Shown here one piece after another: positions 10,508 to 41,383 of a DNA stretch of 41,383 nucleotides. Within the stretch, counting starts at the first letter, position 1, and every line of letters starts with the position of its first letter. The notes below the pieces were generated by a model, which was given only the letters and a program-made list of their open reading frames with translations, was not told the origin of the DNA and did not search any database. This DNA is from Perkinsus olseni (Eukaryota): the NCBI GenBank assembly GCA_013115125.1, contig JABANN010000301.1, forward strand, positions 1-41,383. Reading direction: 5' to 3'. Position numbers and translations under genes: made by a program.

Positions 10508-11464
10508 TTACAAGTCATCATCATCGTCGTCAATGGCCTGGTCCTGAGCGGCCTGGAGCTCTCTTTCGTGCTGTGCAACGAGCTCGGGGTTGATCTGGAA
10601 CTCGGGGGCCTTGGCGAACTCACCCTGAAGGATAGAGAGTATACCAGTATGCTCTACCTCGGATTAGAACCCGCGTCCTCTCGAATGGCAGACGAGAAAA
10701 TAGCCTACTGAACTATACCCACCTGGAAAACAAGCTGAGGCTGGTTGGTGAGCCTCCTTGCGAGCCAGAGGAAAGGTTTCTCAAAGTTGTAATTGGAGCG
10801 AGCAGAGAGATCATAGTACTGCAGATTGCGCTTGCGGTGGAACTGAATATTCCGAGCCTTGACCTGAACACCGAAACAGAGTTCCAACGAATCTTCACCT
10901 TCATCAACCTACCTGTCTGTCCTTCACATCAACCTTGTTGCCAACGAGGACGATTGGGATGTTCTCGCATACTCGGACGATATCCCTGTGCCAGTTGGGA
11001 ACATTCTTGTAGGTGATACGAGATGTCACGTCGAACATGATGATAGCGCATTGGCCCTGAAGGATGACGACAGGTACTCGGATTGGGAGATTGACGCGGG
11101 ATTGAGAGAAAGTCGCTCACTTGGATGTAGTAGCCATCGCGAAGGCCTCCGAACTTTTCTTGCCCGGCGGTATCCCATACGTTGAAGATGATCTCGCCGC
11201 AATTAGTCATGAACTTCAGCGGATGAACCTGAGAAGTGAAACGTATCTTTAGTTGAAGCTGGCGAGATACAAAACAGGTCAGATCAGTTCCCCCTTCTAT
11301 CGTCAAGCAAATGGATGTTGTTCTACCTCAACCCCGAGCGTCGGGATGTACTTCTTCTCGAACTCTCCTGTAAGATGACGCTTCACCAAGGTGGTCTTCC
11401 CAACGCCACCATCGCCGACCAACAGCAGTTTGAACTCAGGTACTCCACTCTGTTGTTGAGCCAT
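10508..11464 (-). CDS. RAN: GTP-binding nuclear protein Ran (multi-exon)
   Basis: [66 protein letters not shown], acidic tail IDDDDDDL*. Confidence 0.97.
10650..10722 (-). pseudogene. Degenerate tRNA-Gly(GCC)-like sequence in the last Ran intron
   Basis: Parses to 73 nt with canonical spacing: GTGGGTA TA GTTC AGTAGGCT ATTT T CTCGT CTGCCAT TCGAG AGGAC GCGGG TTCTAAT CCGAG GTAGAGC A. Anticodon stem 4/5 paired; acceptor and D stems broken. Confidence 0.65.
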
Positions 11465-11787
11465 AGTTAACACCAACTGTGCGAGGAATCTCCGTTCTCA
11501 AGAAAGTCCATGATGGCCTTGATGGGAAAGACGATTATGCGCTAGACGTTTTAGGGCGGGATATCTCATAGCGATTGCGGCGAGCGAGATCGACGTTTTA
11601 ACCCATTTATCTCTCAACGATTATGCCGGATATTTTCTCCCGCTCATGCACGTGGTCTGCCCCGCCTTTCTACTGCCCGCTGACGGAAGGAGACGAACGT
11701 CCATCTTTTATTAAAGTTTTGTGGGATAGCCGGGAGTTGTACTTCGCGCAGTTCTTTTTTTTTCGGAAGAGACCAGCTTCTATCGCA

Positions 11788-12638
11788 ATGCCTGCTATTG
11801 CTAATCTGGGTCGTCTACTGGACTCTGCCGTGCTCGCCATGATAACTGTGGTGCTTGCCGGAGCTGCCTTGTAAGATTGTGGGAATTTGGCCCAGCGGAC
11901 GAGGAGTTGTTTTACCTGTCGGGAGTCCCTGGGTCGAACCCTGCGGCGGGCGATGTGGTTCGATATTATTTATCGCAGGTACTGCATTGGACTGGTCCAC
12001 CACATGATCGTCATCACTGAGAGGAACAAGCTCGGAGCCTTCGGCAACCTAGTGGCCAACGCACTGCCTTTCAAGGTTATAATACTGGGAAAAATGGGGA
12101 GCTTGTTAGTACGTTTTTTTCCGTAAACTCGTTTTCCGGTAGTAGAGATCCTTCCTACTTAGCACTGTGAACGTTGAGATGGAATCGCTAGAACAGTTCA
12201 CCGTGAAGTAGGCTGCAACGCTTCGATCGTCTGAAGGCTCACCCGAGGCTACCCAACGCTGAATAACAGAAATCGTATCACTAATGGTTGTGCTCAACAT
12301 GGTGGATGCCTCTACTGCAACCAACTGACCTCCATCTCGTTTTCATCGCGTAGAGGAAAAGTACTGGGTAAATGCTGTCGGCGGCGAGCAGGGCAACCCC
12401 AGGCCCTCTCTTCGTGAAGAAGGAAAGCTCTTTCCTGACTTTGATCTGCTTTTCTTGGGTTGTCCCGAACTGTGTTTCGTCTCAGGGCAATCGGTTCGAA
12501 TTCAACTTGACCCATGTGCTGTTGTACGCCATCTTGTGCGTTATCCTCTCGCTGAGTCATCATAAGTACCTCGATGCTCAGAGCAAGAGGTTGGAGAAAG
12601 AGGAGAAGAAACAACAGAAGGGGAAGAAGAATGAGTGA
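11788..12638 (+). CDS. Hypothetical multi-exon membrane protein with C-terminal KKxx ER-retrieval motif
   Basis: Hydrophobic first exon (MPAIANLGRLLDSAVLAMITVVLAGAAL then gtaag), several small exons, last exon GNRFEFNLTHVLLYAILCVILSL...KGKKNE*. Internal structure unresolved. Confidence 0.55.
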
Positions 12639-12858
12639 TTGTTAATGATGATGAGCTGAGGATGGACGAGATATTAGAGTATCCTCACGACTGTTGGCGA
12701 TAGTATTTCTTTATGCCATCGGGCTTTTGGTTGCTATGCCGCCGTCTCAATTAGCGCGCGTCTGGTCATAGTAGTATCCTGACCTGTTTTGTATCTTGCC
12801 AGCTCCGACATAAGATTCTGTCATTCGCCACATCTCAAGGTTTTACACTATCCGTATT

Positions 12859-13410
12859 ATGGGTGCTTCTTCCTCGTCCTCGTCACCCTCGCTGCCTCCC
12901 ATCGATAATCAAGAGCTGCCCTGCCAACCGGAGATGGACGCCTTCGTGGCATGCGTCAAATCGTAGTGCCCCGCTTTTGCATTCCGATAGTAGTAGTGGA
13001 AGTGTTGGTAGTCTCTCTACTTGTATGAGTAGTAGAATGAAGACGGCATCGCTCCGCTAACAGCAGGGCACGGCTCCGGAGGAGATGAACTATTTTCTAT
13101 TAGCCCTCGACGAACGAAGGTGTGGCTCTCTGGAACAGGAATAAATGGCGGGCTCCCTTATTGGCGCTGGCGGAATGCAATTTTTGGAAGGATGCCTTCC
13201 GACGCTGAAATTGCATTTTCACGGTGGAGTCCAAGCTCGGAGCTTCCATTGGCTTGAACGCTCGTGCTGTCGAAATTGGCTGTTTTTAGGAAGCCTCAGG
13301 GTCTGCGGGCTACTGACTGCGAGGAGCTGAGGGATCGATATAAGCTCTGCATGCAGGAGCATAAGGAGAATAAAGGCAGCAACAGCAGCGGAGAGAAATC
13401 TTCAGGGTGA
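12859..13410 (+). CDS. Small twin-CX9C (CHCH) protein, about 74 aa, probable mitochondrial intermembrane-space protein; missed by the ORF track
   Basis: Exons 12859-12962 and 13290-13410 join in frame to MGASSSSSSPSLPPIDNQELP-CQPEMDAFVAC-VKSKPQGLRATD-CEELRDRYKLC-MQEHKENKGSNSSGEKSSG. Confidence 0.8.
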
Positions 13411-13685
13411 TGAAGGAATCTTAGGTTGATGCATGTCTTTGATAGACTGTTTCTGATGAAAAAAGGATATTTGAGTTGATAGTATCCGCGGGGCTGATCA
13501 CAGTTGCATTTCATCCGGCTGCGGGTTTATAATTTTATGCTACTTTCTCAGCAGCAACCTCTTTGAAAGCAATTCACACGTCCGAATCGTTTTCGGCGGA
13601 GAGGTGTCTCTGTGTAGAGCTGTTGAATCAGAACAGGCCGAGCTCCCTTGTAGCCGAGTTACCTTCCCTCTGGTCGTCGGTGATC

Positions 13686-16600
13686 ATGTCCTCCTCCTCC
13701 GTCTCGTCGAGTCATCGTCGAGAAGCAAAGAGAGCCAAAACGAGGGAGACGGAGCTGAGCACCTCTCTTGGATACACTAATGAGAGCAATCCCTTCGGTG
13801 ATTCCAATTTGACGTCGACCTTTAGGTAGGGAGGCCTGTTGGGTTGATGGGCGTTGGAAGGCTGTGGTTAGGTGGAAGAAGAAGGAACAGTTCCAGGAGG
13901 CGGCGGGGGTTCGACCGTTGAAGGGTAGCGAGGCGAGAGAGCAAGCGAGGTAGTGACCGTTTGTTGGGTTGGGGAAGGGGTACGTGTGCCCTTCGAGAGG
14001 TGGTTGGTTCCATCCCCACACTTGGCGGTATTTCTCGTCGTCTCAGAGCCAACCTGAATGAGGTGGTCCAGATTCGGCAAAGGCGGGAGGAGCGGGCGGC
14101 AGAAGTGAGCCTGTTGGAGCAGCAGCGGAGCGAAAGGGAGAGAGACATGATGGAAGACGAATATCGGGATTGGCTGGCGAAGGAGGAGAAATTCGATATT
14201 GTACAGAACTGGGAAGATACGCCCTCGAGAATCTTGCGCGTGCGTGCTCACAGCTTGACGGGAATCTTATGGATGGGGAGTGGAGTTCCTTGGACTTTCT
14301 TGTGAAGATATTTTGCAGTGATGGAGTAATTTGTCAGTCCCAAGCGGCCCTGAGATGCTCTCTCCGAATAAAGACCAACACCGAGCACCTGGAGGACTAC
14401 CTGTACAAGGAGCTGCTCCTCGCTACTAAGGGGGTAGAGAAGTTCCCGTATGACGACTGTACCATATTGGAGTCGTCCCTGGTTACTGATACCATTGCGG
14501 TAAGAGGGAGAATGGTGTGCTTGGATGTAGAACTCCGATATGGTGTAGCGGTAGAGCGGCTGTTTGTGATTCGATAGGTTGTGGGTTCATCTCTGAGTAT
14601 AGGCGAATAGAACTCTGAACTTCATTTCTTTACAGACCGGTCAGCTGTTTCCCTTTTGCAGAGCCTTCCCCCAGGGGAGCTGGAGTCCTCAGCGGCACAC
14701 ATAGGGGATCTAGAGAGAGCTGCTCGGGACAGAGGCAAAGGCGAGGAGGCGGACTATTGGCATTGCGTACTTGCACTGGTCAAGGAGCAGCTAGCGGCCA
14801 AGACGGAAGCTGGACCCAAACGTACTGTGGGGGGAGGAAGAGACGCCGTGTTGTTGCTACGCTTGCTCGGACGCCTGGCGGTTACAGCGTATTCGTGTAC
14901 GGGCGGTTGGAGGTCCGCGGTGGATGAAGATCCGGGGGAGGGCACGGAGAGTCAACCATGATGGTCATGGTTCTCTTCCTTATTAATTTCCGAACATCCC
15001 TCAGAGGCATAGAGAAGTGGCATATCTTCATTCTTCGTATCTTCCCATCTTCGACCTCGTGCTTCCTCAGTTGCTCCAACCAGCGGTCTCGGTATCGAGG
15101 ACAATTCCGTGGAGGCTCTGCTGGGAGGAATCGAATCTGCGGAGGTGTTACGAGGAGTTGAAGATGAGCTCAAATGGCTGCTGACTAACAAAGTGAGTGG
15201 AGGATCGGGCAGGAGGGACGCGTGCGGTACTCAGTAATTTCGTGGCGCGCGGTCACTCTCGCACTTTCATTGGTTGCTTCAGGATAGCGGGGGACCAGCA
15301 GATGAGGTTGATGAGGAGTTCATAACAGCAGCCTTAGAGAAGTAGTACTCAAAGTGGTATCTTGGGAATCTTCGCCGTGCGCAAATCCCGGCCTTGTCGT
15401 TACTTAAATCGTCCAGTTCTCCGGCTGCAAGCGGATCTTGCGAGAATCTTTACTGTGCGCTGTTCTGCCCTTCAGGGTTCCTCACTATATTTCTCGTCTA
15501 AGAGTTGATGACATCCATCGGAGGGCGCGCAAGGTTGTCGAGAAGGTGGTGCAATCGATGGACAATGACGAAGTGGAGGTCGTAGAAGACGCGGCAAATA
15601 GGTAGTACGCGTGCTCATACCAACTTTTCCCGAATCCATGACGATTCGTCGATCAGCTCCTCTGCTGCTGCAGCGCCAGCTGCCACCCCAGAGGATACTC
15701 CGGCCCCCTCAGTGACTTCAGACTCTGGATCGGTGGAAGGTGAGCGTATCGAGGAGGGGTTATCGAGGATCACAACGCCACTCAGGTCGAACATCACGAC
15801 GGAGGGCTGTATCCCCAGTCCCCATCGAGCGCGGGACTTCAGCGTTGGAGCCTATCACGGAGGAGGCGAGCCGGTCTGAGATGGCGGAGACGCGGAGGAA
15901 GATCGTGGAGCAGTGGGACAGGAAGGACAGGAGCGCGAAGGCAGAGGTGATACTGATGGGCCGGGGAGGACTATGTGCCGTCGTGGTACGGGAGGCCGTG
16001 ATACATCTGATGTCGATATGGTCTTAGTACCTGTTGACGAAAATCGCCCTCGTAAAATAGTGGGACCGCTTCCCGACGTTTCGATTCGACGACCGCCGTG
16101 GATGTGGCAGGTGGAATGATCTGTTAATGCAAGTGCGATATGATCGTCGGAGTTCTCCGTCTCAACCTAGGGGGTACCATGGGGTATCTTCGTAGTGCGG
16201 GAGCGCTTGAGTCCTGCCCGTGGAGATGTGCCGCTCCGCGTGCGAACGATGAGTCGGTTGTTGCTCGCTCCCGACAGTTTATATATCGTTGATGTTGATT
16301 CTGCAGAGATAGGAATGGCTGGATAGGGGTCCGTTGTTTTTTCACAACTATTTCTACCATAATTGGATTGAAGATGGACTTTGATGATAGGATGGCGCAG
16401 AAGGAATCTTTCGGCTTTCAGGCTAATTTGTTGACAGCAGCGGAAAAGCGGTTGTTGGCGGAGGAAAGGAATCGTAAGGTTGATGATGGTGATGTTACGG
16501 AGGAGATGTTCAACGAACTTTATGTCGCCCCTGGAGAGGCTGGAAAGACCTACGCCTGGGAGGACAAGTGAGGCGATGCGGCTCACGCTGTGGCTTCCGT

Positions 16601-17156
16601 GGAAACTCAGTCGTTTCGATCTGCATTTCTCAAAGCAGAATTTATATCCGGACTGGGAATTGAACGTCCGATCTTCTGAATGATGGTCTTGGATTGTATC
16701 CGCTAGGCCAATAGGAGACGGTTCAGGCGACCTCATCTCAGGTACCGGCCACGGAAGCCGAAGTTCTACAATAAGGTTAAAACCGGCTTTGATTGGAACA
16801 AATACAATCAGACTCACTACGATAAGGAGACGCCGCCACCTAAGAAGGTCATGGGCTATCGCTTCAACATCCTTTACCCAGATCTCATCGACATGCGGAA
16901 GACCCCGCAGGTGAGGAAGTTTGGGTGAGGAACTCTGAGCAGGCAGGGCGTGTGCTTTCAGTACCACCAGGAGGCCTCCCCGACCCCTGGGACGATCATC
17001 TTGCGGTTCTCGGCAGGGCCACCGTACGAGGATATCGCCTTTAAGATTTCTAATAAGGAATGGGACTACGATCGGAGAAGCGGATTTAAGGCAGTCTTTG
17101 AGCGAGGGATGCTACAGTTGCACTTCAACTTCAAACGTGATAGATATAGACGATGA
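13686..17156 (+). CDS. CACTIN: Cactin, spliceosome-associated protein (many exons)
   Basis: GYTNESNPFGDSNLTSTFRWKKK at the N-terminus; YRPRKPKFYNKVKTGFDWNKYNQTHYD..PPPKKVMGYRFNILYPDL and RFSAGPPYEDIAFKI...HFNFKRDRYRR at the C-terminus. Confidence 0.95.
14534..14605 (+). pseudogene. Degenerate tRNA-like sequence (GTG at anticodon position) in cactin intron 14500-14662
   Basis: 72 nt with canonical spacing: TCCGATA TG GTGT AGCGGTA GAGC G GCTGT TTGTGAT TCGAT AGGTT GTGGG TTCATCT CTGAG TATAGGC G. A-box intact, acceptor stem 5/7 paired, B-box decayed. Confidence 0.6.
16646..16716 (-). pseudogene. Degenerate tRNA-like sequence antisense in cactin intron 16568-16741
   Basis: Minus strand TCCTATTGGCCTAGCGGATACAATCCAAGACCATCATTCAGAAGATCGGACGTTCAATTCCCAGTCCGGAT: A-box TGGCCTAGCGG and B-box GTTCAATTCC at tRNA spacing, with TCC...GGA ends. 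Confidence 0.55.
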
Positions 17157-18882: not shown

Positions 18883-18916
18883 TCACTATGATCCTTAAAA
18901 TAGTAACTTACCAACA

Positions 18917-20359: not shown

Positions 20360-22277
20360 ATGTACTCGTCAATGGCCGTGGCCCAGCTGTTTCTGTCCAC
20401 AATCGTAGCACAACCAAACGTTACGACCAATGCCTCGGTGACCGGTGCGATCGAAGGGTTTCTCGCGGACATCTTCCGCACCACTCCGCAGTTGGACGGC
20501 TCCTGCGTCAAAGGAGATGATTGCCTCCTTCCTGTACCTGAAGGCTTCGACCATTCGACGTCGTCGTTCAACATCTATCTGGTGGAGGAAGGCGGCTGGT
20601 GTAGTGTCGCCCAGCAAACGTATCTTAGTGCTACCCTGGCTATTGACGGGGAAACCTCCGAGGGAAATGGCAACCATTCGGATCACTTCCGTCTTCGTTT
20701 CCTCGAGGACAAACCGGCACTCGGACTGTACAAGGTGAGGTCGTGGGCTTCGTGAGGGCCCCCCCTCCTCTCCGGATCAGATTTGCATATGCATGACGTT
20801 CTTCGCGTCCTGCCCGAGCCCACTGAACGATGCCGCCATCGCGGAGGGGTGGACGACGCACACGCCGGCTCAGCCTCCAGGACTAGTTCCATGCGTGATG
20901 GGAGAGGTAAGGGGGCGGTCGGTCGTCCTTGGCAAGGTCCGACAAGAGCCACTCAGCCTCTTTTTCGCAGGCGTCGAGTTCTTACCCCCTTTGTATGTGC
21001 CTTCCTGAGTGTTCCAAGGGGCGGGTCGTAGCCCTTGACTACGCTGTGACCCTCGGGAGAGTGGATTTTGTCGGACCCGAGCACAATCAGTCCTTCGACT
21101 GCACTCTGGTGAGAGGCCGTTCTCCGCAGGAGGAATATCGTATCTCCTATTAGGGGAGGAACTGCAGCTTCAACGTCCGCGGCCACGGGCTGACGGTGGG
21201 TGATAGGCTCACTTTCGTGGAGGGAAGAGATCCCACCCAGTGTGGGGTGAGTGAACGTGGGATGCCCGAGTTCTCCGGCAGCGGATGTATCGATTCGCAG
21301 GCAGCCGCAGCGAGCCCGCTTCTCCTCGACGGGGAAAGTTTGGGGGTGCAAGGAGTTGGCGAGGATGGTGGATGGGTCTCAGCATTTCTTCACGGAGATA
21401 ACCTGCGAAGCGGCGGTGGGATGTTGAAGAAAAGGGGAGGTCGGCTTCCAACTAAACAGACCTCAGGCGCCTTCTCTATTTGCTGGTGTACACCGGCCCA
21501 GCACCCTGGAACGGGCTGCGAAGCTCCGATCGGGTTCGCGATGCCCGCTGGGTCGCTGAGCGTTCTCGGGCCACTGTCATCGCAGAACTTTGTCTGCTAC
21601 GTAGGTTACAGGTGCGAGGTCACCATTCGAGGGTGAGCGATCCACTCAAATGGTTGACCAACGGCATCGTCTGGGCAGGTTCCGACTGTCCCCTCTGGAC
21701 CAGCTCAGCATCAAGACGTCGCCCCTATTTTGTGGAAGCCCGAATTCTTCAGCCTTGGAAGCGTTTCCCTCCCAGCCCTTTAGGGTCTCCCGGATGCAAC
21801 TGGTGAGTGGGCGTCTGCCGTGTAGCGAGCTCATCGTCAATGTTGCAGACCTCGGCCCAGGCCAGCACCAGCTTCGCGCTGCCCGCACCGCAGCGAGCCG
21901 GAGTGTTTACGCTGTGCTACTGTACAAGCCCAGGAACGTTGTGTGATTCGGCCGAGAAGTTCGCGTCGATGCTGGGGAGTATTACAGTGAATGGGGTCAT
22001 TGAAAACCAAACGTGAGGATAACCCCGGCGGGACTTGAACCCGCAACCTTCGGCTCCGGAAACTGACGCGCTTCCATTGCGCCACGAGGTCTGATGGTCA
22101 CGTCTCGAATTTGATGCCTACACCTTTGAAGGTTCGACTGCACCCCCTACTCTGAGTGTAGGATGCGGATCTCGGGTATTGGCCTCGATAGAGAGACCGA
22201 CCGCCTGCTTGTCACCCGAGGGCCCTCCTGCCCTCCGAGCAGCAGCGATGTCGTACCCGATGAGCAGCCAGCAGCAT

Positions 22278-22314
<37 letters not shown>

Positions 22315-27654: not shown

Positions 27655-28235
27655 GAACGACTGATAGTGAGAGCCTCACTGATCCAAGGATTCCACATGT
27701 CATCCTAAGGTCATGCTGTTCTCGTTCCGTATTCCGTCAAGATGACAGGGTGTGGAATGCCATTTCGTTATGTCCATCGCACCTTGAGGAATATGAAGCT
27801 CCAGGGGCATGGAGAACCTGTGCACCGTTGTGTCCAGGCTATGAGGTTCTACCTATCAAACTATGAAGAACGCAACAACACAGACCCGGCCGAAGTTCTC
27901 GTGAAAGAGAGACCTGACTGACTCAGCTAAACTGAGGGACCTTTAACGCTAGATTTAAACAAACTACTTCCTCTGCTTGGAAACCAAGTCTAGTCGAAGT
28001 AAGGTCACACCAGGCTCGACGAAGATACTCAATACGATGTGTCTGATTCCACCAACGCGGAATAGACTGATGAATAGATATGTTTGAGAAGGCCGGGACA
28101 AGATAGAATTGGGTGCTACAAAGGAGGTAGTTAGCTGTCCGAGGGCCACATAAACTGGAATGTCGGAATCGCTCATCACTGCGTGACTGAAACAGAATGT
28201 AGACATACAGTTTGAAAGATCGGGATCCGATGGGA

Positions 28236-29659
28236 TCACACGGTGCCTCGGACTCTCGAAACGGACTTGGATGCTCCGGAACGGCTAGTCGGTTGTCCAA
28301 GAGCCACATGGACTGCCTTCAGGGCGTCCACCTCTCCGATACCGGAAACGCGTAAGTCGTTGGGTATATCCGCAGTTCGAGACCGGATAATAGCATCGGT
28401 GATCTTCTCGCCTTTCACACCTAGTGTAGCCAAAAGGGCCGCAACCCCAGCGACGGTAGGGGTAGACATAGATGTACCACTCAATTTGGCGTAACGCTTT
28501 CCGGGGGAAGTCGAGTTTATGTCCACTCCGGGGGCGGCAATCTTGGTGGTAGAGCCAGCGTTCGAGAAGGAGGCCAACTTTATAGGCGAGCTTGGGGATG
28601 AAGTACTGGCGGCAACGCAGAGCACGGATGGGTTGTTCTTCGCGTAGTTACAAGGGTAGTCAGCCTCTTTGTCCACGTTTGCGGCGTCATTTCCAGCAGC
28701 AACAACCGCGACGTGCCCGGCGGCAGCGGCCTTCTTCAATGCCTGTTCGAAGACTGCACTTGAGGAAGGTCCGCCGTAAGAATGGGAGGAGACAGTAGCT
28801 CCATGCTCGACCGCATAGTTGAGAGCCCTCAATGAATCACTCGCTGAACCGGAACCGTTTTCGTCCAGGAACTTCAGGATCATCAGCTTCACATTGGGCG
28901 TTGGTGCGGTAGCATTGCCCACGCCGGCGATACCAATACTATTATTAGTCCGAGCAGCCGCGTCACCGGCACAATGGGTACCATGACCATATTCATTATC
29001 GTCATTGACATCAGCATTGTTCTTAATGAAGTTGTAGCCGATAGAACCGTCAGATGGGTTCTTATAAAACTGGCAAACTAGATCCGGATGATCAGGGTCA
29101 ACTCCGGTGTCGATGACGGCCAATACAACATCTTTCAACTTCTGCTTGGACGAGCGAGCTGCTTCCCAGGCAGCTCCGATGCGGATGACCTCGAGGTTAC
29201 TCTGGCAGGAAGAGAGAGGATCGTTGGTACCGAGCCCAGGATTGCCACCAGTACAACCGGAAGATTTCTCGGCCTGAACCTGGGTGACGACCGGCTTGGC
29301 AGTGACCTTGAAGTCGCGCTCACAATCAAACTCAAACCCCAGCAGCTCTTCGGCACTCTTCAAGTAGTTCATGATTTGCCTGTGACCCGCCGAACTTTCA
29401 GAGTGTACAATTTGGACTCCTATTAACGTCAGTCTTGGACCATACCATGTTGAGCAAAGCATTGTTCACAGTTGCGATCACCTTCGCTGAGCGAAAGTAA
29501 CCTTCCACCAGGGGCAGAGGCAGCCTGTGCCATCATGTGTGGTACATGGCGAATGTCGAGGGGGGATCCACGATGAGAGATCCTGACCAGCGTGTGACCA
29601 GAGTCACCCTCTCCAAAGGCCATAACACCGAAAAATGTCGGTAAGAATGCCAAACGCAT
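28236..29659 (-). CDS. Secreted subtilisin-like serine protease (S8) with a 1-nt frameshift in the prodomain at about 29432
   Basis: Catalytic triad VLAVIDTG, GHGTHCAG, SGTSMSTP and oxyanion AAGN; the signal peptide MRLAFLPTFFGVMAFG lies in a different frame from the catalytic domain. Confidence 0.9.
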
Positions 29660-31582
29660 GGGAATAACCGTTAACTGAAGCAAACGGAACGATTGCCATC
29701 CGAGCGGGTAGTTCGTGGGAGGCCTATCGGCTCCGCAGGCTTGGTGCTCTCTAAAGCTCCGAAGAGGAGTTGAACTCATCATTAACGCCGTATCGTAAGT
29801 CGGAGCGAATGGCGATCTCCGCGTTCCTGGTGAGATTATGACAGGGAAGTTCCCTGAGGGAACACGCATACGATAATTGTGTGAGGAAACCCTTTAGCAA
29901 GAGATCATGCCTCTGTTACTGTTGCCGCGGACTGCGATTGTCTCACGTGACGACGGACTACGGTGACTATGCTGTGACAGCATTGCTGTTTTTCAACCTT
30001 GGAAACCGTACATGATGTAGTTGCATTCACTGACTGCCCCACCGAAATCGGGTATACGTGTGATTTCAGATCTCGCACGGATAGCGGCCTTGGGATAGCG
30101 TTCGCACAGCCGTCCGTGCAGACCACGAGCAGCCACATGAACTATAATGATAATTAGTGCGGGGAGTGACGGGCTTGATACTTCTCACCTGCCGATCTGT
30201 CACTACAACGGTATTGATTGTTACAGCAGTGCTTTGGGAAGCACAAGTGCTCCGAGGCAGAGTTGAAGGCAGAGTCTTTACCTCACGGTGCTCGTCTATC
30301 TCCGCTGCCACAGGCACACAACCTCTGTCGCCCTCAGCTAACTCGAGCTAGTAGGAGTGGTAGTAGCGCAGGCTGATACCAGGCAGCTTCGCACCAGAGC
30401 AAGAATCCAGCAAGAGCAAGATTCCTGTGGTAATCAATGTACAACGTGTTTGCTGGTGATGATAGCTTTCCCGCGACGGCCGCTGGCCTAGGCTTTATGC
30501 ACCCGGATAACATCTGGGGGATGTTTGATTATGTTCGACCTTTGCCCGCTTTGTGCGACAATATTCATGCCACACAAACCTGAACTCGTACGGCAGAAGT
30601 TTCCAACGAAAACTCTTCATTCCACATGGATACGCGTTTCGAGAATTCATGTGCGTTGGAGTCGCCTGGCCATATGGCGGCTGCGAGGGAGAACGAGAGG
30701 GATTTGTTTGTTTCGGGTTTCTACCTGGCGGACCAGCATCTTCCTCGCGGCCCCGCCCTAGTGGGAAGGATCGGGCACTAGTGATAATATATTGGTCGAC
30801 CTTGTTCAAGCGCGAATCACCTTGTTCAGCCGGTATTCGGGCCACGATGTATCCATAAACTGAACTTCAGTGCCCAACTTCCAGTGGTTACTCCCGCCGA
30901 TCGCACCGTGCGTGTGGCTCGGATGTTATGGACGCGGGTATATCGGCCCCCATCTGATAGTTATGTCATGATAAATTGCGAGGTTCCGCTGAAATCTCAC
31001 CGTCGCCCTCAATACATCAATCCACCAGATCGACTCCAGGTTGTACTGAGCCCCTTCGATATCCTGATGCCAAACACGAGCGCTTGCGGGTTTCTTCGAG
31101 AGTGCATTGGTGTGTTTATAGGCCAACTCCGTTCCCGGCTGAGTAAGACTCCGAACGATAGGGTCAATTTGTCGCTCTGTGGCGAGATTGGCATTCGCTT
31201 CACGTGGAGCGTGAGCGTTATGATATCTCGCTGTGTTCCACACAAAGAACAGTATGTGAGTCCTTATACAGTCATAGTTGAATATGAGGTCGTCGCACCC
31301 CTATTCTGATGCTGTAGTGAACAAGTCAGCTAAGCTGGAATAGAACCAACAACCTTCGGGTCGTCCGCCTCGTGAATAAACGACTACGCCACTTTTCCAC
31401 GCACCACCGCTGTAACTATGAAACGCGGCACTGCATAGTAAGACTAGAAAATGCTTCCATCAATGCGATACAGAGGAAACTTACTCCTACGGAAGGTTTG
31501 CTACTACATCACTTCAAGAAGTAATTCACCACTTAGCGGCCGAGGTACAACATCAACATCGGTGGAAGTAAGCACATGATAA

Positions 31583-31808
31583 CTAAACGGCTGAATCCAG
31601 CGTCTTCAGCTTCCGATCACCGAGGCTCGCTTCATGAGTCATACCAAGAGCCCTGGCCATGTTGGTAGCAGCGCGAACTTCCTCCTTGGAGTTAGCCCGA
31701 CGAAGCTTCTCTCGGATAGATTGAGCTAGCCTGCGACGGAAGAGTATCATCAGTAGCGGATAGGATGACCGCTAGACTCACTCGTTATCAGGATGGCCTT
31801 CCTCAGCC

Positions 31809-31853
<45 letters not shown>

Positions 31854-32543
31854 CGGACATTCCTCTTGCCTTGCGGGCGCTGCTGCCTTGATGGGGCAGG
31901 GGCCATACCCAACATGCTCTTCAACTGATTCTCGGCGACGAATTTAGACTTATTGTTACCTGCATTCCAAGTGTACTAGACTATCCGACTCACTCAGCCC
32001 TACGTCTATTGTCAGCCTTCTGAGCTTGACGCTGCTGCTGTTGCGGCTGCTGTGTTCGGGCCCCAGTAGAATTGGGAGCCCGCTGGTTCTTAGTTACACC
32101 GGCTACCTGCTGCTGACGGGTACGCTCCTCACTGGCGGAGCGCGTCGGGGCATAGGCCGCATCGATGACTTCCTCACGAACCCCCTCAGGGATCACCTTG
32201 TCCAGCTAAAGAAAGAGACTGCGAGCCCATCGCCAACCTCGGCCAGGTTACCTCCATCTTAGTGGGCTTCTGGCCCTCGCGTTTGCTGAGCTTCATCAAC
32301 TCCTTCACGGCATTGCGCAGTTCATCGACCTCCTTGGTAAGATTGGCCAGCTGCTTCGAGTCGGACTTGGTCATGCGCTGAGGAACGCCCCTATTCCGAC
32401 CCGCCGAGTTGAGATCATGGACTCACATTGAGGTTCGACAGCTGGTCCTTAAGTGCCTTGTTCTTGGTCCGGGCGTTGACCATCTCAGCGGCACCACTGG
32501 AGGCGGCGGCCGCGGTTTGCTGTTGCTTCATATTAGGGGCCAT
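31583..32543 (-). CDS. Hypothetical Gln-rich coiled-coil protein (5 exons)
   Basis: Splices in frame through four GT-AG introns from MAPNMKQQQ to ELAQSIREKLRRANSKEEVRAATNMARALGMTHEASLGDRKLKTLDSAV*. Confidence 0.75.
31814..31849 (-). repeat. (CAG)12 microsatellite encoding poly-Gln
   Basis: (CTG)12 on the plus strand; in frame as RNVRK-Q12-KQAEE in the minus-strand gene. Confidence 0.9.
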
Positions 32544-32719
32544 TAGCGCGGAGGATGACGGCGTCGGAGAGAAAAAGCGGGTGGTATAACAAACTACTGA
32601 TGACGATGATCAACTCTCGACCAATAACGCAGGGATGCACTTAGCGAGCAAATGGTAAAGTATCAGCATGTGTAAGGGTTATTATTAGAAACTGTATGAA
32701 TGGTACAAAGAAGCGGCCC

Positions 32720-35406
32720 TCACTCGGCCGGGGCGCCTCCTACTACCGGAGAGGAGATGCCAGGGAAGATACTGCTGCTGGCTGAGGGACCGTGCAGGCG
32801 TGAGAGCTGAGCAACGTCGGCCAGGAAGCTGAGTGGAACGCATGACGCCGAAGCGGATGGTGGTCGGATGCAATTACGTTTTAGAGTTGTGGACGGTACT
32901 GCCGCCGAGCACTATGGCCGGTTGTTTCTCTGTTGACTGTTGTGAGGTAGCCCCGGGCGCAGTAGCGGTGGTGCTCGCGAGCTGGTCATTGAGAGTGTCG
33001 ATGTCTCGGGCCTCCTCGAAAGTACAGCCACCAACCATGAACACTAGCAACAATGATGGCCTGAAGATGAGTGACGCGATGGTATCTTAGGTTGACTCGT
33101 GGTCACCACGGTGTAGAAAGATACTACCTCATATTCTCCACGCCATTCAAGCGGCCTTTACTGCCAACCACAGCAACGTAATCTTGCTCTTTCACTTTGC
33201 CCTTGAGCGCTTGCTCAGCTGTGATCGATATTGGAGACCTGTGCTGAGTATAGACGTTCTCTGTCGAACCAGCGAGCCCCAGACGGCGGGCCAAGGCAGC
33301 AGCGGCTCCCGAACTGGAAGGGTAGGGTAGCCGAGATGCCGAACCGAAGTGGTCCAGCATTGTTGATATGAGCCCAACCTGACCGCAAGAACATCGACAG
33401 CGCGGCGTGAGGAGAGCCGGATCAGTACCTGCTCGGGAGGGACGCCCTTCTGTTGCAGAAGACCCTTGAGATCCCGGATGCCACTCGTATCGGTCTCAAA
33501 CCTCAACGCATAGAGAATACATATCTTCAGCCGTTCCAGGTTGGAGTTGCGAGGATTCTCGATCATAGCTGATATGACGACCCAGGTTCGATCCCAGGTA
33601 AGGACATCTTTTCCTACCCTTCACCCTTTTCAGTTGGTCGCGCATGCTCATATGATCGTCACAGGCCAAACTTTGCTCCAGCTCTGAACACTCCAGCAAG
33701 TTGTACTTCTCCACCATCCGCGATATCTCATGAACCAATGCCACGTGCTTTGACACGTTGCCACTGAGCTTGCGGTACTCGGGATACCTGAGCGAGGCAC
33801 AGGTTCAATCCCGGCACCCGACACATTGTACTACTGGTCTAGGAATCTTTGCATATCTTCAACATTGTCGACCTTCGCCTGATGCTTGGTCTGCTGCTGA
33901 TAGAGCTCAACATACTCCTTTATGTGCATCCCGAGATCTCCGAAGTTGCTCAACTGAACAACAACCACTTCAAGCCTTCCGAAACCCCTTCCCAACCTTA
34001 CGTAATTATCCCGGAAGAATTTATCAGAAGTAGTGCTGAGGACCACCTCTACACCCTCCGAAGACGATCCTCCTTCGCCGGCCACCGCCAACGGATGCAT
34101 TACTCGGTTGTTCTCCAAACCTAGCAGCTCATGGACCTAATTGGGAGCATGCCGATCTCGAGAATACCATCCCCCTGGGTATTACCATTGCTTGATAAGT
34201 CCACTGTGTGAGTAAAGGCGTCACAGGGTCGTCCCGTCGATCGGCCACCAAGATGAGCATACCGCCGCCACTGTTAACGGGCGTCTCTGCCGACCCCGCA
34301 ACGCTCTCGAAAAGACTCTCATCTTGTTCTAGCCGCTTTTGAAGAGCCAAAGCGACTTTGCGTGCCAATGGGGAAGCCGATGAATACCGAATGACTGGCA
34401 GGGTGAGACCGGAGGAGTTCGTGGCTGTGACCGGGCCGGCACCTGGGAAGTGACAGTTGATTTGAGATAGGGGGAAGGAGAGGCCTACCTCGCTTGACAC
34501 TACCCAGCGATATCGAAGCTGCGAAGAGGCCATCTACTTGACGTTGAAAGACGCTCTCCTCGAAGGCCGTCCACATCGTTTGCTCTCGATGCAGCTGTGC
34601 TACTGACTGGGAGCCCAGAGAGAACGACCCAGCATTTAGTGCGATAACGTCGGCGTACCTGAGGGGAACTGCAGGAGGGAAATGATCGGTAGACGCCTAC
34701 GCTTCGGTGACAGAAGCGACGCACTCATACTCGTCACAAGCCGCCAGCTGAGACAGTCGACCGTGAGGGACTACGTTTGAGAAAACTGAAAGAAGGCGGC
34801 GATGGCACACCGGTGCCTCGAATGGAGTATTACATAAATGATACTCGCTGTAGATGGGCTGACGGAGGACCTTGGAAAGCGCCAAGAAGTTCTGGTTGGT
34901 GGGTCGAAGGAAGACGCAGGCCTTCATGTGCCGCATGTTGTTGTTGGTGGAAGCAGGAGACCCATCGTTGGGTGCGGCTATGGCCTCCTCAAGTGGCTCT
35001 ACCTATTCGGAAAGGATACTACCACTAATTCTCCTAGTAGCTCAACGTAACCGTGGTATGGCTGATGCTACAGTAGCGAGTCGAGCGATGATAATCAGAG
35101 AGCCACAATCACCAGTATCACTGCTACTACGGCCTTTACCAACATCATCACCGACCCCACAAGCATTACACCCCTCCTCCTATTGAGACCACCACGGCTA
35201 TCACTACTACCACGTAATACTATTACCAGGAAAACCTCCTTATTGAGTATCTCGGTCTGTGTCATGACTGTGCTGACGATGGGAAGCGTGTCCTTATCTA
35301 CCAGAAGGGCCTTCATCACACCAGCCCCTCCGACTCGGTCCAGCATCGAGTTAAGATACCGATTATTGGACCCCCAGATGGAGTACCACGGCTCATCCTT
35401 AGACAT
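32720..35406 (-). CDS. VPS45: Vps45, Sec1/Munc18 family vesicle trafficking protein (many exons)
   Basis: MKALLVDKDTLPIVS, HMKACVFLRPT, DRRDDPVTPLLTQWTYQAM, NVSKHVALVHEIS, ENVYTQH, VFMVGGCTFEEA, LGGSTVHNS. Confidence 0.93.
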
Positions 35407-35655
35407 GCAAAAAACAATGTTAACCTGCAACCACACACTCACTGGTTGCCAGCCCCGGGCCCCAACCTTCGCGCGCCACGAAATTATCTTACATTCACGA
35501 AGTCTGCGCTTGACCTTCACTCGGCATCATCGTCAATCAGTCGCTTAAGTATGTCATATGATCCCGAGCCGGTGCGACGAGGATCAAGTGGAGTCGCGCG
35601 CGCCCGAGTGATCGATTAATTTCCGAGGAAGTGAGCGAGAGTGGTATTAGGTAAA

Positions 35656-36514
35656 ATGGGAAAATTTGGTGGTGGCAACGAGAAGGCGATAGCCGCTAGA
35701 GAAAGGAAGAAGGAACAACACGCTGTGAAGGTCGCTGAGGAGGTAGATGGGGATCTGGGTATCTTAGGTTGAACCGTGGTGTCGTTGAGTAACCTTGGTT
35801 GTCTCAGCAAAAACGCAAGGAAGATGCACTCTGGCGAGACGAAGATAAGAGCAAAGCCGCGAAGGACGCGAGAGCAAGAGCTAAAGTGCGGGGGCTGTCT
35901 GTGCGGGACATTGGATGGGAATCTTAGGTTGAAGCTTGCATGGAATCTTAAGGTTGACTGCGTCTTGCTTGAGTATCTTTCTTCAGGAAGAGGCCCACGA
36001 TGCTAAGCTTGAGAAGGATAAGGAGAAGAGGGAACTCTTGAAGGCTGAGGAAGAGGCGCTGAAAAATGTCGGGAAATCTAAGAAGCAATTGGCGGGCTCG
36101 AAACAAGTCACGCGCCGCGATATTCAATCCCACGCCCTCATGGGGCTGGCAGCTCCCCCTACTAAAAAGAAATCTCACAAGCCCTCCGCTGCCGCTCCGA
36201 AGGTCGTCGTCACTGACGAGCCGCTGCAGGAGAACATCAATCACTTGTTGAGAGCACAGGCAGCGCGAGGCGTTGAGGTGGTATCGGGTAGTGGCATTGA
36301 TAGTGCTCTTGGGGCGTTGGGAGGAGAGGCTGCTGGTGGAGAGGATCGACATCCGGAGAAGCGGGCTAAGGCGCTGTATGCTGCGTTCGAGGAGAGGAGG
36401 ATGGCTGAGATTAAGGATGAGTATCCGGGTTTGAAGCGGTCACAATACAAGGAAAAGATATTCAAAGAGTGGCAGAAGTCACCAGAGAATCCTTTGAGAG
36501 ATTTGAAGAAATGA
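35656..36514 (+). CDS. CCDC124: CCDC124/Lso2 family ribosome-associated protein (3 exons)
   Basis: MGKFGGGNEKAIAARERK start; DRHPEKRAKALYAAFEERRMAEIKDEYPGLKRSQYKEKIFKEWQKSPENP C-terminus. Confidence 0.9.
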
Positions 36515-36889
36515 TAAAATCGTAAGATTAGATTTCTTGTGTTAATCTCTGTGGTGTTTGTGATAGCTCTGGGGGAAGTCAAATGCCGGGATGGAGACTC
36601 CGTTGATAGATCCACCTCGGTGGTTGCGTATGGGCATTTGCCGCTTTTTCTATCAAATTCGGTAACCCAGGCCGCAGAAGCATCTTTCGTTGGGGATAGA
36701 CATTTGCCACTTCTTGTATCGGAATCGGTGCCTCAGGGCGCGAGAGTCCTTGTCGTGAGGACTCCAAGTGAGAATTGCTGTAGCGGCAGCGGGACTACTG
36801 AAGGGACATCCCATCCCAAAACCCCACAAGAATTCGTGAGGGTAGTTGTATATTGTCATTGTAGTAGGGATTGGCTTACGAGTAATAAC

Positions 36890-39689
36890 ATGGGAGCATC
36901 ATGCTGTTCCTCTTCCACTGCACCAGATGATCCAACGCGTATGGACAGCTTAGTAGAGGAAACGCGGACGGGTAGTGGGTAGGGGTATCGACACGAGCGG
37001 TTCACGCCCTGCAACTGCTAACGTTGATTAGAACGGGAATCGCTCTTGTGAAGGGCTCGTCTGAGTTTTCGAAAATGTGGTAGGGAGGAAAATTCATCCG
37101 ACGCGGGGCGTGGTGGAGCCTATCTTAGTCTAAGCGAAGACCCGGAGAACCCTTTCGCGATCCATTCAGACCGAGAAATTGGCCATTCTCGCTTAGGCGG
37201 GTGGCGCATGATTTTGATGGGTATTGTACAGAACAGTCGCGTGAGAAAAGCTACCGTGGAATTGAGTGCCCTCCTCTCAGATTCACAACCCCGTGGGGGT
37301 TCGTCATCGGCCGCAGTGGCAGTAGGCAGCGATGTGCTCACAGACGGCGATGAGATAGATGTGCGGTTGCTGGTCGATAGCGATCCGTTCGAGCAACCAG
37401 TGTCGCCTATCAATCAATCGGGAGGGACCGCAGCCTTCTACCGAGTTAAATACAACGAAGGTTCTTCTGGCGGCAGGTAGTAGGGACACTCGGTATGGTT
37501 TTGAGCTTCAAGATTGGAGGCAGGACCCCTTACTACTGGATCGGAAAAGATCTCGCGAGAGCAGCCGACGAAGTTGACTTTTACGATGAAATTAATGCTT
37601 TGCGGAAGAGCGAGAATGCGAATGGTTCGGGCTGCCAGTCCTGGGCCATCAGCGAGTACATGCTGGAATACGCCGGTAAGAACTCCTTCCACGAGTCTCG
37701 TTTGATCTTCGGGCTGGCTCCTAGGCGTCTGTCGTCTTCGTGTGAAGTGCCCGGCGAAAGCGTCAGCTCATACTGGCTCGGAGGCCAGTAGTAGTGTTAA
37801 CGGTAAATCGCCTGTGAGCGCAACTGAAGTGATCGAAGAGAGAGATCTCATCTTGTTGCGGAATCTTCACGACGGTTATAAGAAGCTGAGGTTACTGGAC
37901 ATAAAAATGGGAGAAGTCACGGCGGTTGCAGGTTGGCAGGTGAGAAGGGCTGAGACAGAAAGTCTGAGCTCTTGTCCGAAGTGGGTTTTCAGGAGCTACT
38001 ACTGCGGACCAGCGGAGTTAGAGTGGAAAGGCTTTTGTGTTCAGGGAAAGAGTCGTTTTCGGGCTTGGAGAGGCCATCGGATTGATAAGCATACTAATTC
38101 ACAAGTGGAGGGTTTCCGACTTGAAGGCTTTGGCGGATACCCGTGGAGTTTACGAAGCATGGATCCGAGTGCGGCTTTGAAAGTACAGGGTCAGCTTTTC
38201 TGTCGATCCCTTGGTTCATGTGGCTGTGTGGTCTAGTGGTATGATTCGCGCTTCGGGTGCGCGAGGTCCCGGGTTCGATTCTCGGCTCAGCCCTGTTATT
38301 TCTTTGAACATATCTTGCTCTCAGATGTACAAGAGCCAGGCTCGGCGACTACAATATCAGCGCCTGAGTGCGCAGGACTTTCTCACCTTCTTCCTTGACA
38401 TGCGCCATGCTTATTCTTCTGACGGTCCTCTTTCCCAAGGCCGTACGCCTGAGGAATACATCGAACTCGTTCTACTCCAAATACTACGAAAGCTGTGTAA
38501 GATTTGCTCAGCACTGAGCGAGGTGAAGATACCGCAGATGTGGGTGGGCAGTAGCATAGCACTCGGGTTCGATGCTGAGGGACTTGACTCTAGTGGAACG
38601 CCCAACACTCAAGTAGTTCTCTTCGACTGGGGTAGATCAGAGTTGAACACCGCGGCGAAGAACGCCCGATTGAGTCCGGAGGAGCAGCATAAGAGAAGTA
38701 AATACTGGAGACATTACCTGTGTGCTGCCCACCGCCTCTTCTACGAGACTGCTAGGGTATATTATAATAGATATCTGGCTGAGAGATGGCGGAGCGTAGT
38801 TTTTGAAGTTTGGGATTACGATTCTATCACGGAGAACGACTCCGTGGGCCGAGTAGCCATCCCGCTGGACATGTCGAGATTGTCGACAGAGACCTTTACG
38901 AGCTACGTCCTCTTCCTCATGGACTGCGATGATGATGGTGTCCTGACGAGGAACTCTCGGGGGGAGGCGTCGCTGCTTTACGTGAGTTTGAAGCGAATTG
39001 AGTATGCGGAGGAGTCACGGTTCGAAGAGGGCGTTTTGGTGAGGGTTGAAAAGGCCAGAAATCTGCCCATCAAGGACTACATTGGGAGCTGCGATGCGGC
39101 AGTGACAGTTGCTGTGACGGACCTTCCGATAGGGAGCCAAGCTAGGGTGCCGCGCTGCGTTAGCGAAGAGAAGCGGAGTGGAACGGTGAGTAGCGACTGC
39201 TATGGGGAGTCCCTGCGTTCCGACATGCTTCCCCCCTCAGTCTCCTGGTGATGCGACTGGGTATCCCTTCCCCGCCTTGGGTTCTGCAGCCTCGGCAAGC
39301 AATTGCCAGTGCCTTCAACAAACCTCCGTCGTTACCGACTCACTCGATCCAATTTGGGGCGGTCCGAATGGCTTGGGCGAGGTTTTCGAGTTCGCCATCA
39401 CCAAAGTGTACGCAAGCTTCCCGTGGTTGCTTTAGTATCACTTCCACTCAGGGATGATGTCACCGGCAAAGATTTCCTGCAGGCGATAACAGGCGGGGAA
39501 ATAACAACTTTCGACCGTAGCTTTTGCAACGGGCTCTTCCCAATCAGGTGAGGACGCATCACCGCTGTCGGCCATAGTCTGCCTTTCTTTAGTGGCGGAG
39601 ACATCGATACAGGCGGAGCCTATCAAGATTTCGTCCGTAACTTTGTGCCCACTACCTGCGGTGACATCTCATCCCCATCCGCATGCTAG
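36890..39689 (+). CDS. Inositol polyphosphate kinase family protein with C-terminal C2 domain(s) and an N-terminal myristoyl/palmitoyl motif
   Basis: MGASCC start; LLDIKMG, TNSQVEGFRLEG, GSSIALGFD, VLFDWG kinase motifs; C2-like FEVWDYDSITENDSVGRVAIPL, VRVEKARNLPIKD, TSVVTDSLDPIW. Confidence 0.8.
38222..38293 (+). tRNA. tRNA-Pro(CGG), sense strand inside an intron (about 38183-38324) of the inositol kinase gene
   Basis: GGCTGTG TG GTCT AGTGGTA TGAT T CGCGC TTCGGGT GCGCG AGGTC CCGGG TTCGATT CTCGG CTCAGCC C; one T-T mismatch in the acceptor stem. Confidence 0.92.
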
Positions 39690-40045
39690 GCGGCGTTCAA
39701 GACTCCGGCGAGGTGACGACTGTTTGCTGCCTGTTACTCCTACCCTGGAAGGCATTCGCCTCTTCCTCGATGAATACTAATTTACCAGTTTTCCTCAAAG
39801 CCGTGGCCCAGCTTACCGGGCTTCGATGACCGCTGACCAATGACAACTTGTCAGAGCCATTGATGAGCTGGCTTTGGCTCTCGATACCGTCCGCTCCTCG
39901 CTGTGTACATACTATCAACAATATCATCAATCTGTTATTTTTGTCGTGATTTGTGTATTTTGACGTGCGAATGTCCACCAGGGTGTTGCGCTTATGGGAG
40001 TTGAGAAGTCGTAGTCGCCGTATTGTTGCCGCAGTTGTTTCATCG

Positions 40046-40847
40046 ATGGTCCGAGGGAAGGATGCTTCTTCAGTGAAAGGGAACGGAGTAGAGGACCCTT
40101 TTGCGATGCTTGAGGCTGAGCAAATGAAAGAGAAATTGGCGGCGAGCTCGAAGCCGAAATCGGAGGTCAATCGGAAAGTCAGCAGTATGTGCTCGCATTG
40201 CTGCACCGTTTGAGTGATGCATTCAGACACTACGGTTTCGGCGCCACCGAGGACGGGACGGCCCCGCCAGTCAGACGCTTCCAGCGATAGTGATTCGGAG
40301 GCCAGTGAGGATGAGCGCTGGGCTCGAGAGCGAGAGGCACGCCGAAAAGTAGGAATGGGTATGCTGTGGAGTCAATCCTGCAATGCTCCCGGCCATGCCG
40401 ATGCGCTCCTGGATATGCTCGCGGAGGTTTCATGATACGATGGGGGATCATGTACTGGGCAGCATCTACTGTTCCATCCCGCCTTCTCAGCGCGCTTTGG
40501 AGCAGATAGACAAAGAGTACGAAAATAAGGCTAAGCAGCGTGCGGTAATGGAGAAGACGGCTGAGGAGAAAGCCAAGGTCCAAGAGGCAGCACTCCAGGC
40601 GGGGTAAGTCCGCCGGGCAACTCCGACTATCGCTCCTCTTTCGGTTGATGTGTGCGCATCTGGAATAACTTCTATTGGAACGAAGCAGCCTTCCTCTGCT
40701 GATGGTAGGTTCACTCCTCTAGAACGGTATATTCTTCGGTCGGGGGAGATAGCAGAGAAGTATAAGGTCGATGACCTCAAGATCAAGGAAAAGCTTGAGA
40801 ACAAACACCGATCGAACGCGGAGGAGTCTGAAAGTAAAGCTCCTTAG
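40046..40847 (+). CDS. Hypothetical charged coiled-coil protein (about 4 exons)
   Basis: MVRGKDASS...EVNRK, DSDSEASEDERWAREREARRK, RALEQIDKEYENK...ALQAG, FTPLERYILRSGEI...ESKAP* separated by GT-AG introns; start may be ATG 39971. Confidence 0.6.
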
Positions 40848-40890
40848 TTGCATGAATGATGTTGAGTCGATAAGTCGCGCTTAGAGCCCG

Positions 40891-41320
40891 ATGGTCGTTG
40901 GGAAGATGGACTGGTACATAAATTGAATGCCAGTGCGGTTTGAAACACTTGCGATGAGGGCTGCTTAGCTCGAGGGGGCCAATTGAGCTTCAGCCAATCT
41001 TCGACCAATCGGGAGGCAAATTCTGTTAGGTTACGGATGTCATATTGTCACGAGGTAGTAGGAAAAATTTCAGCGGATAGATTTTCACGGCGGTATGCAA
41101 CAAAACATGGCGACTCAGTATCTATACTTCTTTTCGTGTGGGTCGTTCCCTATAAGAAGACACGACGTAACGCTTTTCCGGTCTTCTGGTACAGTGTATA
41201 TGCTCCATGCGGACAGTCCTCCAAGAACCCTTCCGTCCTTGCCCAACCACCTCAACAGCAATGCATCGATTGCTAAAGTCTCCACACTTCAAGGGTCTCA
41301 CTTTGATAAAAAGATGTGTG
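40891..41320 (+). CDS. Possible 5' part of a divergent S26 signal peptidase / mitochondrial IMP-like gene, continuing beyond the window
   Basis: Ordered exon fragments SRGPIELQPIFDQSG, KISADRFSRRYATKHGD, SSKNPS, GLTLIKRCV then donor gttagt; order resembles GxSMxPT...GD...P...IKRV. Confidence 0.35.
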
Positions 41321-41329
41321 GTTAGTCTC

Positions 41330-41383
41330 TGCGCCCGCCGGGAGTCGAACCCGGGTCACAAGCATGGGAAGCTTGTATGATAC
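41330..41383 (-). tRNA. tRNA-Gly(CCC), 5' end cut by the window edge
   Basis: ...GTATCATA CAAGC TTCCCAT GCTTG TGAC CCGGG TTCGACT CCCGG CGGGCGC A: perfect anticodon and T arms. Confidence 0.9.

Follow-up and report, generated by a model that had tools for sequence, protein, structure and literature searches.

Nested transfer RNA (tRNA) genes occur in animals other than Caenorhabditis too, and tRNA-derived short interspersed elements (SINEs), each built of one tRNA-related head with a common body and tail, are often intronic. In Caenorhabditis, tRNA genes are nested in the introns of protein genes (PMC3342880, PMC4999229). In Perkinsus marinus, 349 tRNA-Leu-CTT and 116 tRNA-Gly-GGA copies exceed 95% identity with the respective consensus (PMC3706591), and introners, such as those of Amoebophrya, form families with inverted and direct terminal repeats (PMC7789003; review, PMC11282704). 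Here we describe tRNA genes and tRNA-like sequences in spliceosomal introns of a stretch of 41,383 nucleotides (nt) of a Perkinsus olseni contig (positions 1-41,383, hereafter the window). Two intact tRNA genes of the window are nested in introns, these host introns are spliced, and tRNA-like sequence is present in other introns. As in Caenorhabditis, complete tRNA genes whose promoters would be internal are contained entirely in the introns of unrelated genes that RNA polymerase II (Pol II) transcribes. Unlike in Caenorhabditis, introns here usually measure 42-50 nt and are tripled in length by a single tRNA, and the window also holds relics in graded states of decay, the most reduced of them being half-tRNAs in introns of minimal size. 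The amplified tRNA families of P. marinus belong to the same genus and show that tRNA genes multiply and disperse there, and the Dada transposons of that species insert into tRNA genes, unlike the tRNA genes inside introns described here (PMC3706591). No Dada-like sequence turned up at the window loci, although no search was aimed at Dada. Nested tRNA genes as such are a known arrangement, and their occurrence in Perkinsus is one for which we found no report: no account of tRNA genes in introns of Perkinsus (Perkinsozoa) was found in the literature, supplements with possible tRNA tables lying outside the scope of that search, and the passages of PMC3101222 and PMC7789003 contain no such description.

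The analysis drew on the window, four public RNA data sets (runs X1 to X4) and the literature. The window is gene-dense and eukaryotic, with 48-58% G+C. Its Ran exon is 100% identical to P0002, which NCBI names Perkinsus olseni, and the spliced cactin model matches P. olseni P0123 without gaps at 97.8% identity over 582 amino acids. RNA contigs of the four runs were mapped onto positions 21400-41383 only, and those parts of the mapped region that had no contig cover were excluded from evidence. Our own gene finder overpredicted introns in its first version and was incomplete in its second (for example, in the Ran exons), and was trusted only where RNA or protein was colinear. In all, 34 introns were catalogued, comprising 15 listed joints of the 35 seen in RNA, 3 introns deduced from pieces of contigs, 4 in Ran that follow from the exact mapping of P0002, and 12 in cactin that follow from colinearity with P0123. 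We detected tRNAs with ARAGORN and with the Rfam covariance model RF00005 (gathering score 29). The features discussed below are collected in Table 1.

Table 1. Intact and decayed tRNA sequences of the window and the introns that host them
Feature	Position	Strand	Evidence
tRNA-Pro(CGG), complete	38222..38293	+	ARAGORN 120.8; Rfam 49.5 bits
142-nt GT-AG intron hosting tRNA-Pro	38183..38324	+	RNA contigs of four runs
tRNA-Arg(CCG), complete	22020..22091	-	ARAGORN 114.8; Rfam RF00005 59.5 bits
119-nt GT-AG intron hosting tRNA-Arg	22013..22131	+	X2 contig overhang; P0242 colinearity
tRNA 3' part, cut by window end	41330..41383	-	Rfam 34.3 bits, model positions 18-71
Last Ran intron, 98 nt	10625..10722	-	exact mapping of P0002
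Ran relic, decayed tRNA in sense	10650-10722	-	HMM 12.8 bits (10719-10660)
Cactin-1 intron, 162 nt	14500..14661	+	gap-free spliced match to P0123
Cactin-1 relic, sense	14534-14606	+	HMM 18.1 bits, E 7e-5 (14536-14588)
Cactin-2 intron, 174 nt	16568..16741	+	CactinC Pfam match begins at exon edge
Cactin-2 tRNA-like piece, antisense, marginal	16647-16702	-	HMM 6.5 bits (16682-16651)
49-nt Sec1-family intron with antisense tRNA 3' half	33569..33617	-	RNA joint, 4 runs; exact B box
Another intron of this Sec1-family gene, 47 nt, with a further antisense T-arm remnant	33788..33834	-	RNA joint, 4 runs; exact B box
tRNA-like relic, intergenic	31325..31412	-	ARAGORN 95.2 at 95% threshold; HMM 7.7 bits

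An earlier reading of this DNA, made from the letters alone (the sequence-only reading), had placed both complete tRNA genes in introns, and the RNA contigs show that both host introns are spliced. At tRNA-Pro, contigs from all four runs (X1 rec5, X2 rec12, X3 rec17 and X4 rec21) resume at position 38325, after the AG at 38323-24. X4 rec21 has 141 letters for genomic positions 37937-38324, so that 247 nt are missing. Two GT-AG introns, one of 105 nt at 37940-38044 and one of 142 nt at 38183-38324, add up to exactly this number, and tRNA-Pro therefore sits inside the 142-nt intron, in sense and 39 nt downstream of the donor. Its acceptor stem has one U-U mismatch, as judged by eye, and its host gene encodes a C2 domain together with a weak match, under the Pfam cut-off, to inositol-polyphosphate kinase. 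In an X3 contig, tRNA-Pro (38222 onward) is fused to other upstream sequence, in which CAG and then GTGAGA stand 21 nt ahead of the tRNA, a hint that the genome has a second copy of tRNA-Pro at another place, situated just within a different intron.

The intron around tRNA-Arg is defined by an X2 contig that begins at 22132 and carries an 11-letter overhang identical with positions 22002-22012, ending at the GTGAGG donor at 22013; the joining of this overhang to 22132 delimits the intron 22013-22131. The tRNA is antisense to its host intron and starts 7 nt past the donor. P. olseni P0242 is colinear across the tRNA-Arg gap from 20360, but with an acceptor at 22161. Since P0242 spans the gap, the intron lies in the coding region, and a location in a 5' untranslated region (UTR) was ruled out. 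The host is a large gene without assigned function. When the tRNA is subtracted, 47 nt of the intron remain (7+40), which is the usual intron size, and a TTTT run lies 13 nt beyond the 3' end of the tRNA. In both intact cases the two splice sites are external to the tRNA, which is thus not their source; together with the 47-nt remainder, this fits an insertion of tRNA-Arg into an existing intron. A and B boxes are present in the sequences of the intact tRNAs, from which we infer that RNA polymerase III (Pol III) transcribes these copies from promoters of their own. An own promoter would be needed by tRNA-Arg, because it is antisense, and sense copies could be excised from the host intron. Two side observations concern the tRNA-Arg host gene. 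The intron that holds tRNA-Arg has a pair of in-frame acceptors separated by 30 nt, one used in the RNA contig (22131) and one in P0242 (22161), and a CAG repeat at 22262-22320 was left out of the contig mapping as a repeat.

Decayed copies were sought with a sequence-only tRNA hidden Markov model (HMM) derived from 24 type-I tRNAs of E. coli and the two window tRNAs (the mixed model), and with a second, E. coli-only HMM from which the window tRNAs had been removed. The whole window was scanned on both strands, blind to the relic positions, and chance was gauged from 100 dinucleotide shuffles of the window, 500 shuffles per intron and 300 shuffles per intron or exon piece. In the ranking for the whole window, the three real tRNAs are followed by a relic in one cactin intron (cactin-1) and then by a relic in the last Ran intron. 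These two align over 53-60 tRNA positions, including T8, A14, G18-G19, T33 and the T-loop. Matches in the window shuffles number 0 per window at 18.1 bits or more and 0.03 at 12.8 bits or more, and none of the 500 shuffles of either intron reached the score of its own relic. A third relic of that reading, in a second cactin intron (cactin-2), is marginal, its score being reached 0.21 times per shuffled window and by 0-1 of 500 intron shuffles. Similarity above chance over most of the tRNA length was thus found for cactin-1 and Ran and is marginal for cactin-2, for the relic at 31325-31412 and for the remnants in the introns 33569-33617 and 33788-33834. The intron limits proposed from the sequence held in every case but one, the cactin-1 intron ending at 14661 and not at 14662.

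The Ran relic fills most of its intron, and position 1 of the tRNA coincides with position 1 of the intron. Its stems retain 1 of 4 pairs in the D arm, 4 of 5 in the anticodon arm and 2 of 5 in the T arm, its B box has one mismatch, and the triplet at the anticodon position reads GCC by eye. The B box of the cactin-1 relic has three mismatches. Relics with broken stems, as the sequence-only reading had described them, are therefore what is found: the fold is lost, and structure-aware tools do not detect these sequences.

We have also identified a feature that is absent from the sequence-only reading and new here, namely remnants of tRNA 3' halves in two introns of ordinary size in a Sec1-family gene. 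The 49-nt intron has as its body a T arm, whose B box is exact, followed by a 3' acceptor-like strand and a TTTT run; it scores 5.6 bits, a value reached by 0-1 of 500 shuffles. The 47-nt intron has T-stem-like flanks and a 3' acceptor-like strand beside its B box, and scores 3.7 bits with the mixed HMM. The window contains four exact matches to the B-box pattern GGTTCRANNCC, two in real tRNAs and two in these RNA-listed short introns, and the shuffle mean is 0.6 per window. The chance of at least two exact B boxes in the 925 nt of RNA-listed introns is small (Poisson P = 9×10−5). No internal repeat was found in the Sec1-family host protein, and neither intron is therefore a duplicate of the other.

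Taken over the whole window, HMM matches of at least 3.7 bits other than the tRNAs number 8, compared with 1.67 expected from the 100 window shuffles. The 34 catalogued introns account for 8.0% of the window and contain 5 of the 8 (binomial P = 1.5×10−4); the 15 RNA-listed ones account for 2.2% and contain 2 of the 8 (P = 0.013). Seven of the 34 introns score above all 300 of their own shuffles; in the exon control, 1 of 65 pieces had a score reached by at most 3 of 300 shuffles. Altogether 7 of the 9 elements are intronic, 3 in sense and 4 in antisense, which bears out the claim that both orientations occur, and the decayed copies in introns comprise two strong and three weak ones.

The sequence-only reading had further proposed repeated entry of tRNA genes or of a tRNA-derived mobile unit into introns. 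The presence of tRNA genes and decayed copies in introns stands, and a single mobile unit does not. An all-versus-all blastn-short comparison of the nine elements of the window gave only 8-14-nt matches, which lie in the T-arm and B-box part where their coordinates were checked, and the relics carry differing triplets at the anticodon position (a positional reading by eye). These results suggest independent copies, with no sign of a single mobile family. Like SINEs, the elements are related to tRNA, carry A and B boxes and are dispersed, often in introns. Unlike SINEs, they have differing anticodon triplets and no shared flanks, and two of them are intact tRNA genes; no shared non-tRNA body or tail was found among the nine elements of this window. 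Like the introners of Amoebophrya, a myzozoan relative, they represent repeated DNA as the body of a spliceosomal intron (PMC7789003). Unlike introners, the nine elements include no family of similar introns, and no terminal repeats or target-site duplications were found among them.

We consider it likely that these are ordinary Pol III-type tRNA genes, together with dead copies of them, nested in the introns of Pol II genes in a compact Perkinsus genome. Perkinsus would hold very many near-identical tRNA copies, new ones of which could land anywhere; selection would purge any that fell in exons, and copies in introns or in the small spaces between genes would persist. Insertion of a tRNA of about 72 nt into a typical intron of about 47 nt would yield an intron of about 120-140 nt that could still be spliced. 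Redundant copies would then lose their stems and be whittled down by deletions, giving a series from an intact gene in an intron of 119-142 nt, through a full-length relic in one of 98-162 nt, to a half-tRNA in one of 47-49 nt. This order of events, with insertion into pre-existing introns followed by decay, is what we infer from the series. Because the introns of this protist are near minimal, insertion and decay may be read from intron length and sequence together. If genome-wide, the process would explain part of the long-intron class of Perkinsus, would link the large tRNA gene families to intron evolution, and could provide a dated series of insertions from which the rate at which introns shrink back may be gauged.

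Several observations weigh against this interpretation. The relic claim depends on a home-made HMM (24 E. coli tRNAs and two window tRNAs). The E. coli-only HMM lowers cactin-1 to 14.1 bits, a score surpassed in 2 of 100 shuffled windows, and Ran to 11.8 bits. At E<=10, over the whole window and three sub-regions, the Rfam covariance model gave no match at any relic, and ARAGORN, with thresholds lowered from 100% to 85%, reported nothing in the Ran, cactin-1 and cactin-2 introns, a silence of both tools that also fits broken stems. Both remnants in the Sec1-family introns are weak (3.7-5.7 bits), and the one at 33788-33834 finds no match with the E. coli-only HMM. Downstream of tRNA-Pro the longest T run is TTT, a weak terminator. 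The catalogue is partly ascertained, with long introns over-represented, because Ran and cactin were picked for their relics. The intronic share of 7/9 is not clearly above that expected from non-coding space: within the 10 kb covered by RNA, introns are estimated at about 15% and intergenic sequence plus UTRs at about 18%. The enrichment is thus demonstrated against exons and not against other non-coding DNA. Finally, the Ran intron without its relic measures only 26 nt and its donor GT is formed by bases 1-2 of the relic, which is a poor fit with simple insertion into an older intron. Deletions may have moved the donor so that it falls in the relic; alternatively, the intron was founded by the insert.

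The latter possibility leads to a broader proposal, that dispersing tRNA copies are a main supply of intron sequence in Perkinsus and that some inserts, as in the last Ran intron, founded introns, a route of intron turnover and gain unlike that of introners of the transposon type. We regard this as unlikely. Intron gain or replacement could also have proceeded by capture of tRNA gene copies, or of complementary DNA (cDNA) of abundant tRNAs, at breaks in genes, the inserts persisting where they could be spliced. In addition to the start of the Ran relic at the first intron base and the 26-nt remainder, such capture would account for two standard introns of 47-49 nt that are largely a tRNA 3' half, and the many tRNA gene copies of the genus (PMC3706591) would supply it. 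It is quite unlikely all the same, since both intact cases have splice sites outside the tRNA, the tRNA-Arg intron without its tRNA is of normal length, and neither target-site duplications nor shared ends were seen in the elements.

It could also be argued that only the two intact tRNAs are real and that the relics are chance likenesses produced by the eye and a permissive model, given that Rfam and ARAGORN lend the relics no support, that the weak matches are short T-arm pieces, and that shuffled windows yield matches of at least 5.6 bits 0.35 times per window (0.03 times at 12.8 bits or more). We judge this to be very unlikely in view of the excess of matches over expectation and their concentration in introns, the extent to which the two strong relics cover the tRNA and its invariant bases, the failure of every intron shuffle to reach these two, and the exon controls. 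Retention of the tRNA-like sequences for a function, be it in TFIIIC binding or insulation, as an aid to splicing or as signals for RNase P/Z processing of the host transcript, might be suspected from the B boxes, exact in two short introns and with a single mismatch in the Ran relic, and from human intronic tRNA-like sequences reported to affect splicing (PMC7722341), but would seem highly improbable with stems decayed to differing degrees, mixed orientations and three mismatches in the B box of cactin-1. The human look-alikes resemble the present sequences in being tRNA-like, intronic and possibly of effect on splicing; they are mitochondrial DNA insertions (PMC7722341), whereas the window copies look cytosolic in type.

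Nested tRNA genes with dead copies would also matter for annotation, in that gene finders tuned to introns of 45-50 nt misplace splice sites at such introns. P. chesapeaki cactin P0125 has an insert of 37 residues exactly at the site of the cactin-1 intron. This insert is probably a retained 111-nt in-frame intron in the gene model, and we liken it to such annotation errors. The insert showed no significant similarity to the translated cactin-1 intron, 603 of 2000 shuffles being as good. Elsewhere in cactin, a B-box-like site with one mismatch at 14006-14016 (+), in the intron 13950-14046, has T-stem-like flanks and no HMM match. When the Ran protein was compared with metagenomes, 80 loci were found, the best matches being contiguous over about 630 nt, cDNA-like and intronless.

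Two elements lie outside demonstrated introns. The tRNA cut by the window end, with anticodon CCC (Gly) by eye, had been linked to an intron through a donor-like 'gttagt' at 41321. Contig X1 rec6 passes through this motif into the tRNA, covering 40708 to 41358 without splicing, and the reading frame of the gene upstream stops near 40847, so that the claim does not hold as stated; the tRNA may belong to a 3' UTR, to intergenic sequence or to the first intron of a gene starting near 41207. The statement that no tRNA is clearly intergenic likewise fails at the relic 31325-31412. Contigs of three runs end at 31453-31457, short of the relic, which is therefore beyond the messenger RNA 3' ends and intergenic. 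In the intron mode of ARAGORN it forms a poor Ala-like cloverleaf, and Rfam gave no tRNA match there. The other additional ARAGORN matches (85-95%) were rejected, as they do not coincide with the relics of the sequence-only reading, and an HMM match at 12958-12990, which spans an apparent exon edge, seems to be due to chance.

The first anticodon position is occupied by C in each of the three tRNAs (CCG, CGG and, by eye, CCC), which makes all three isoacceptors for G-ending codons. Near the window end, an X4 contig carries a 9-letter overhang, CTTGGCTCA, immediately before 40033. We take it to resemble the end of a Perkinsus or dinoflagellate spliced leader, and 40033 may be the trans-splice acceptor of the gene at 40029-41358.

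That most introns are short, as the sequence-only reading had stated, is confirmed by the RNA-listed introns, 11 of 15 of which measure 42-50 nt. The whole catalogue of 34 comprises 16 introns of at most 60 nt and 16 of at least 90 nt. A tRNA or relic accounts for 4-5 of these 16 long introns, in agreement with the claim that part of the long-intron class is explained in this way; 11 of the 16 have no tRNA signal, which weighs against that reading. No C/D-box small nucleolar RNA (snoRNA) pattern was found in a scan of the 16 long introns, so snoRNA hosting gains no support as the alternative for the other long introns. The cactin gene (13686-17153, +) has 12 introns, of which 8 are at least 90 nt long and one is 475 nt (15947-16421). 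The introns of the neighbouring Sec1-family gene, unlike those of cactin, are 42-67 nt.

The U3 snoRNA at 27022-27202 (+; Rfam ACEA_U3, 100.4 bits), where X1 contig depth is very high (65,899 in its bin), appears to be non-intronic. The 8-mer GGAATCTT occurs 10 times, compared with 1.26 expected, with sites at 13415, 14261, 15365, 16403, 35918 and 35942 (+) and also at 33084 and 35761, and 5 of the 10 copies lie in catalogued long introns, in sense orientation. Of the 12-mer ATCTTAGGTTGA there are exactly 4 copies. These sequences may represent a second, non-tRNA motif or repeat that is associated with introns.

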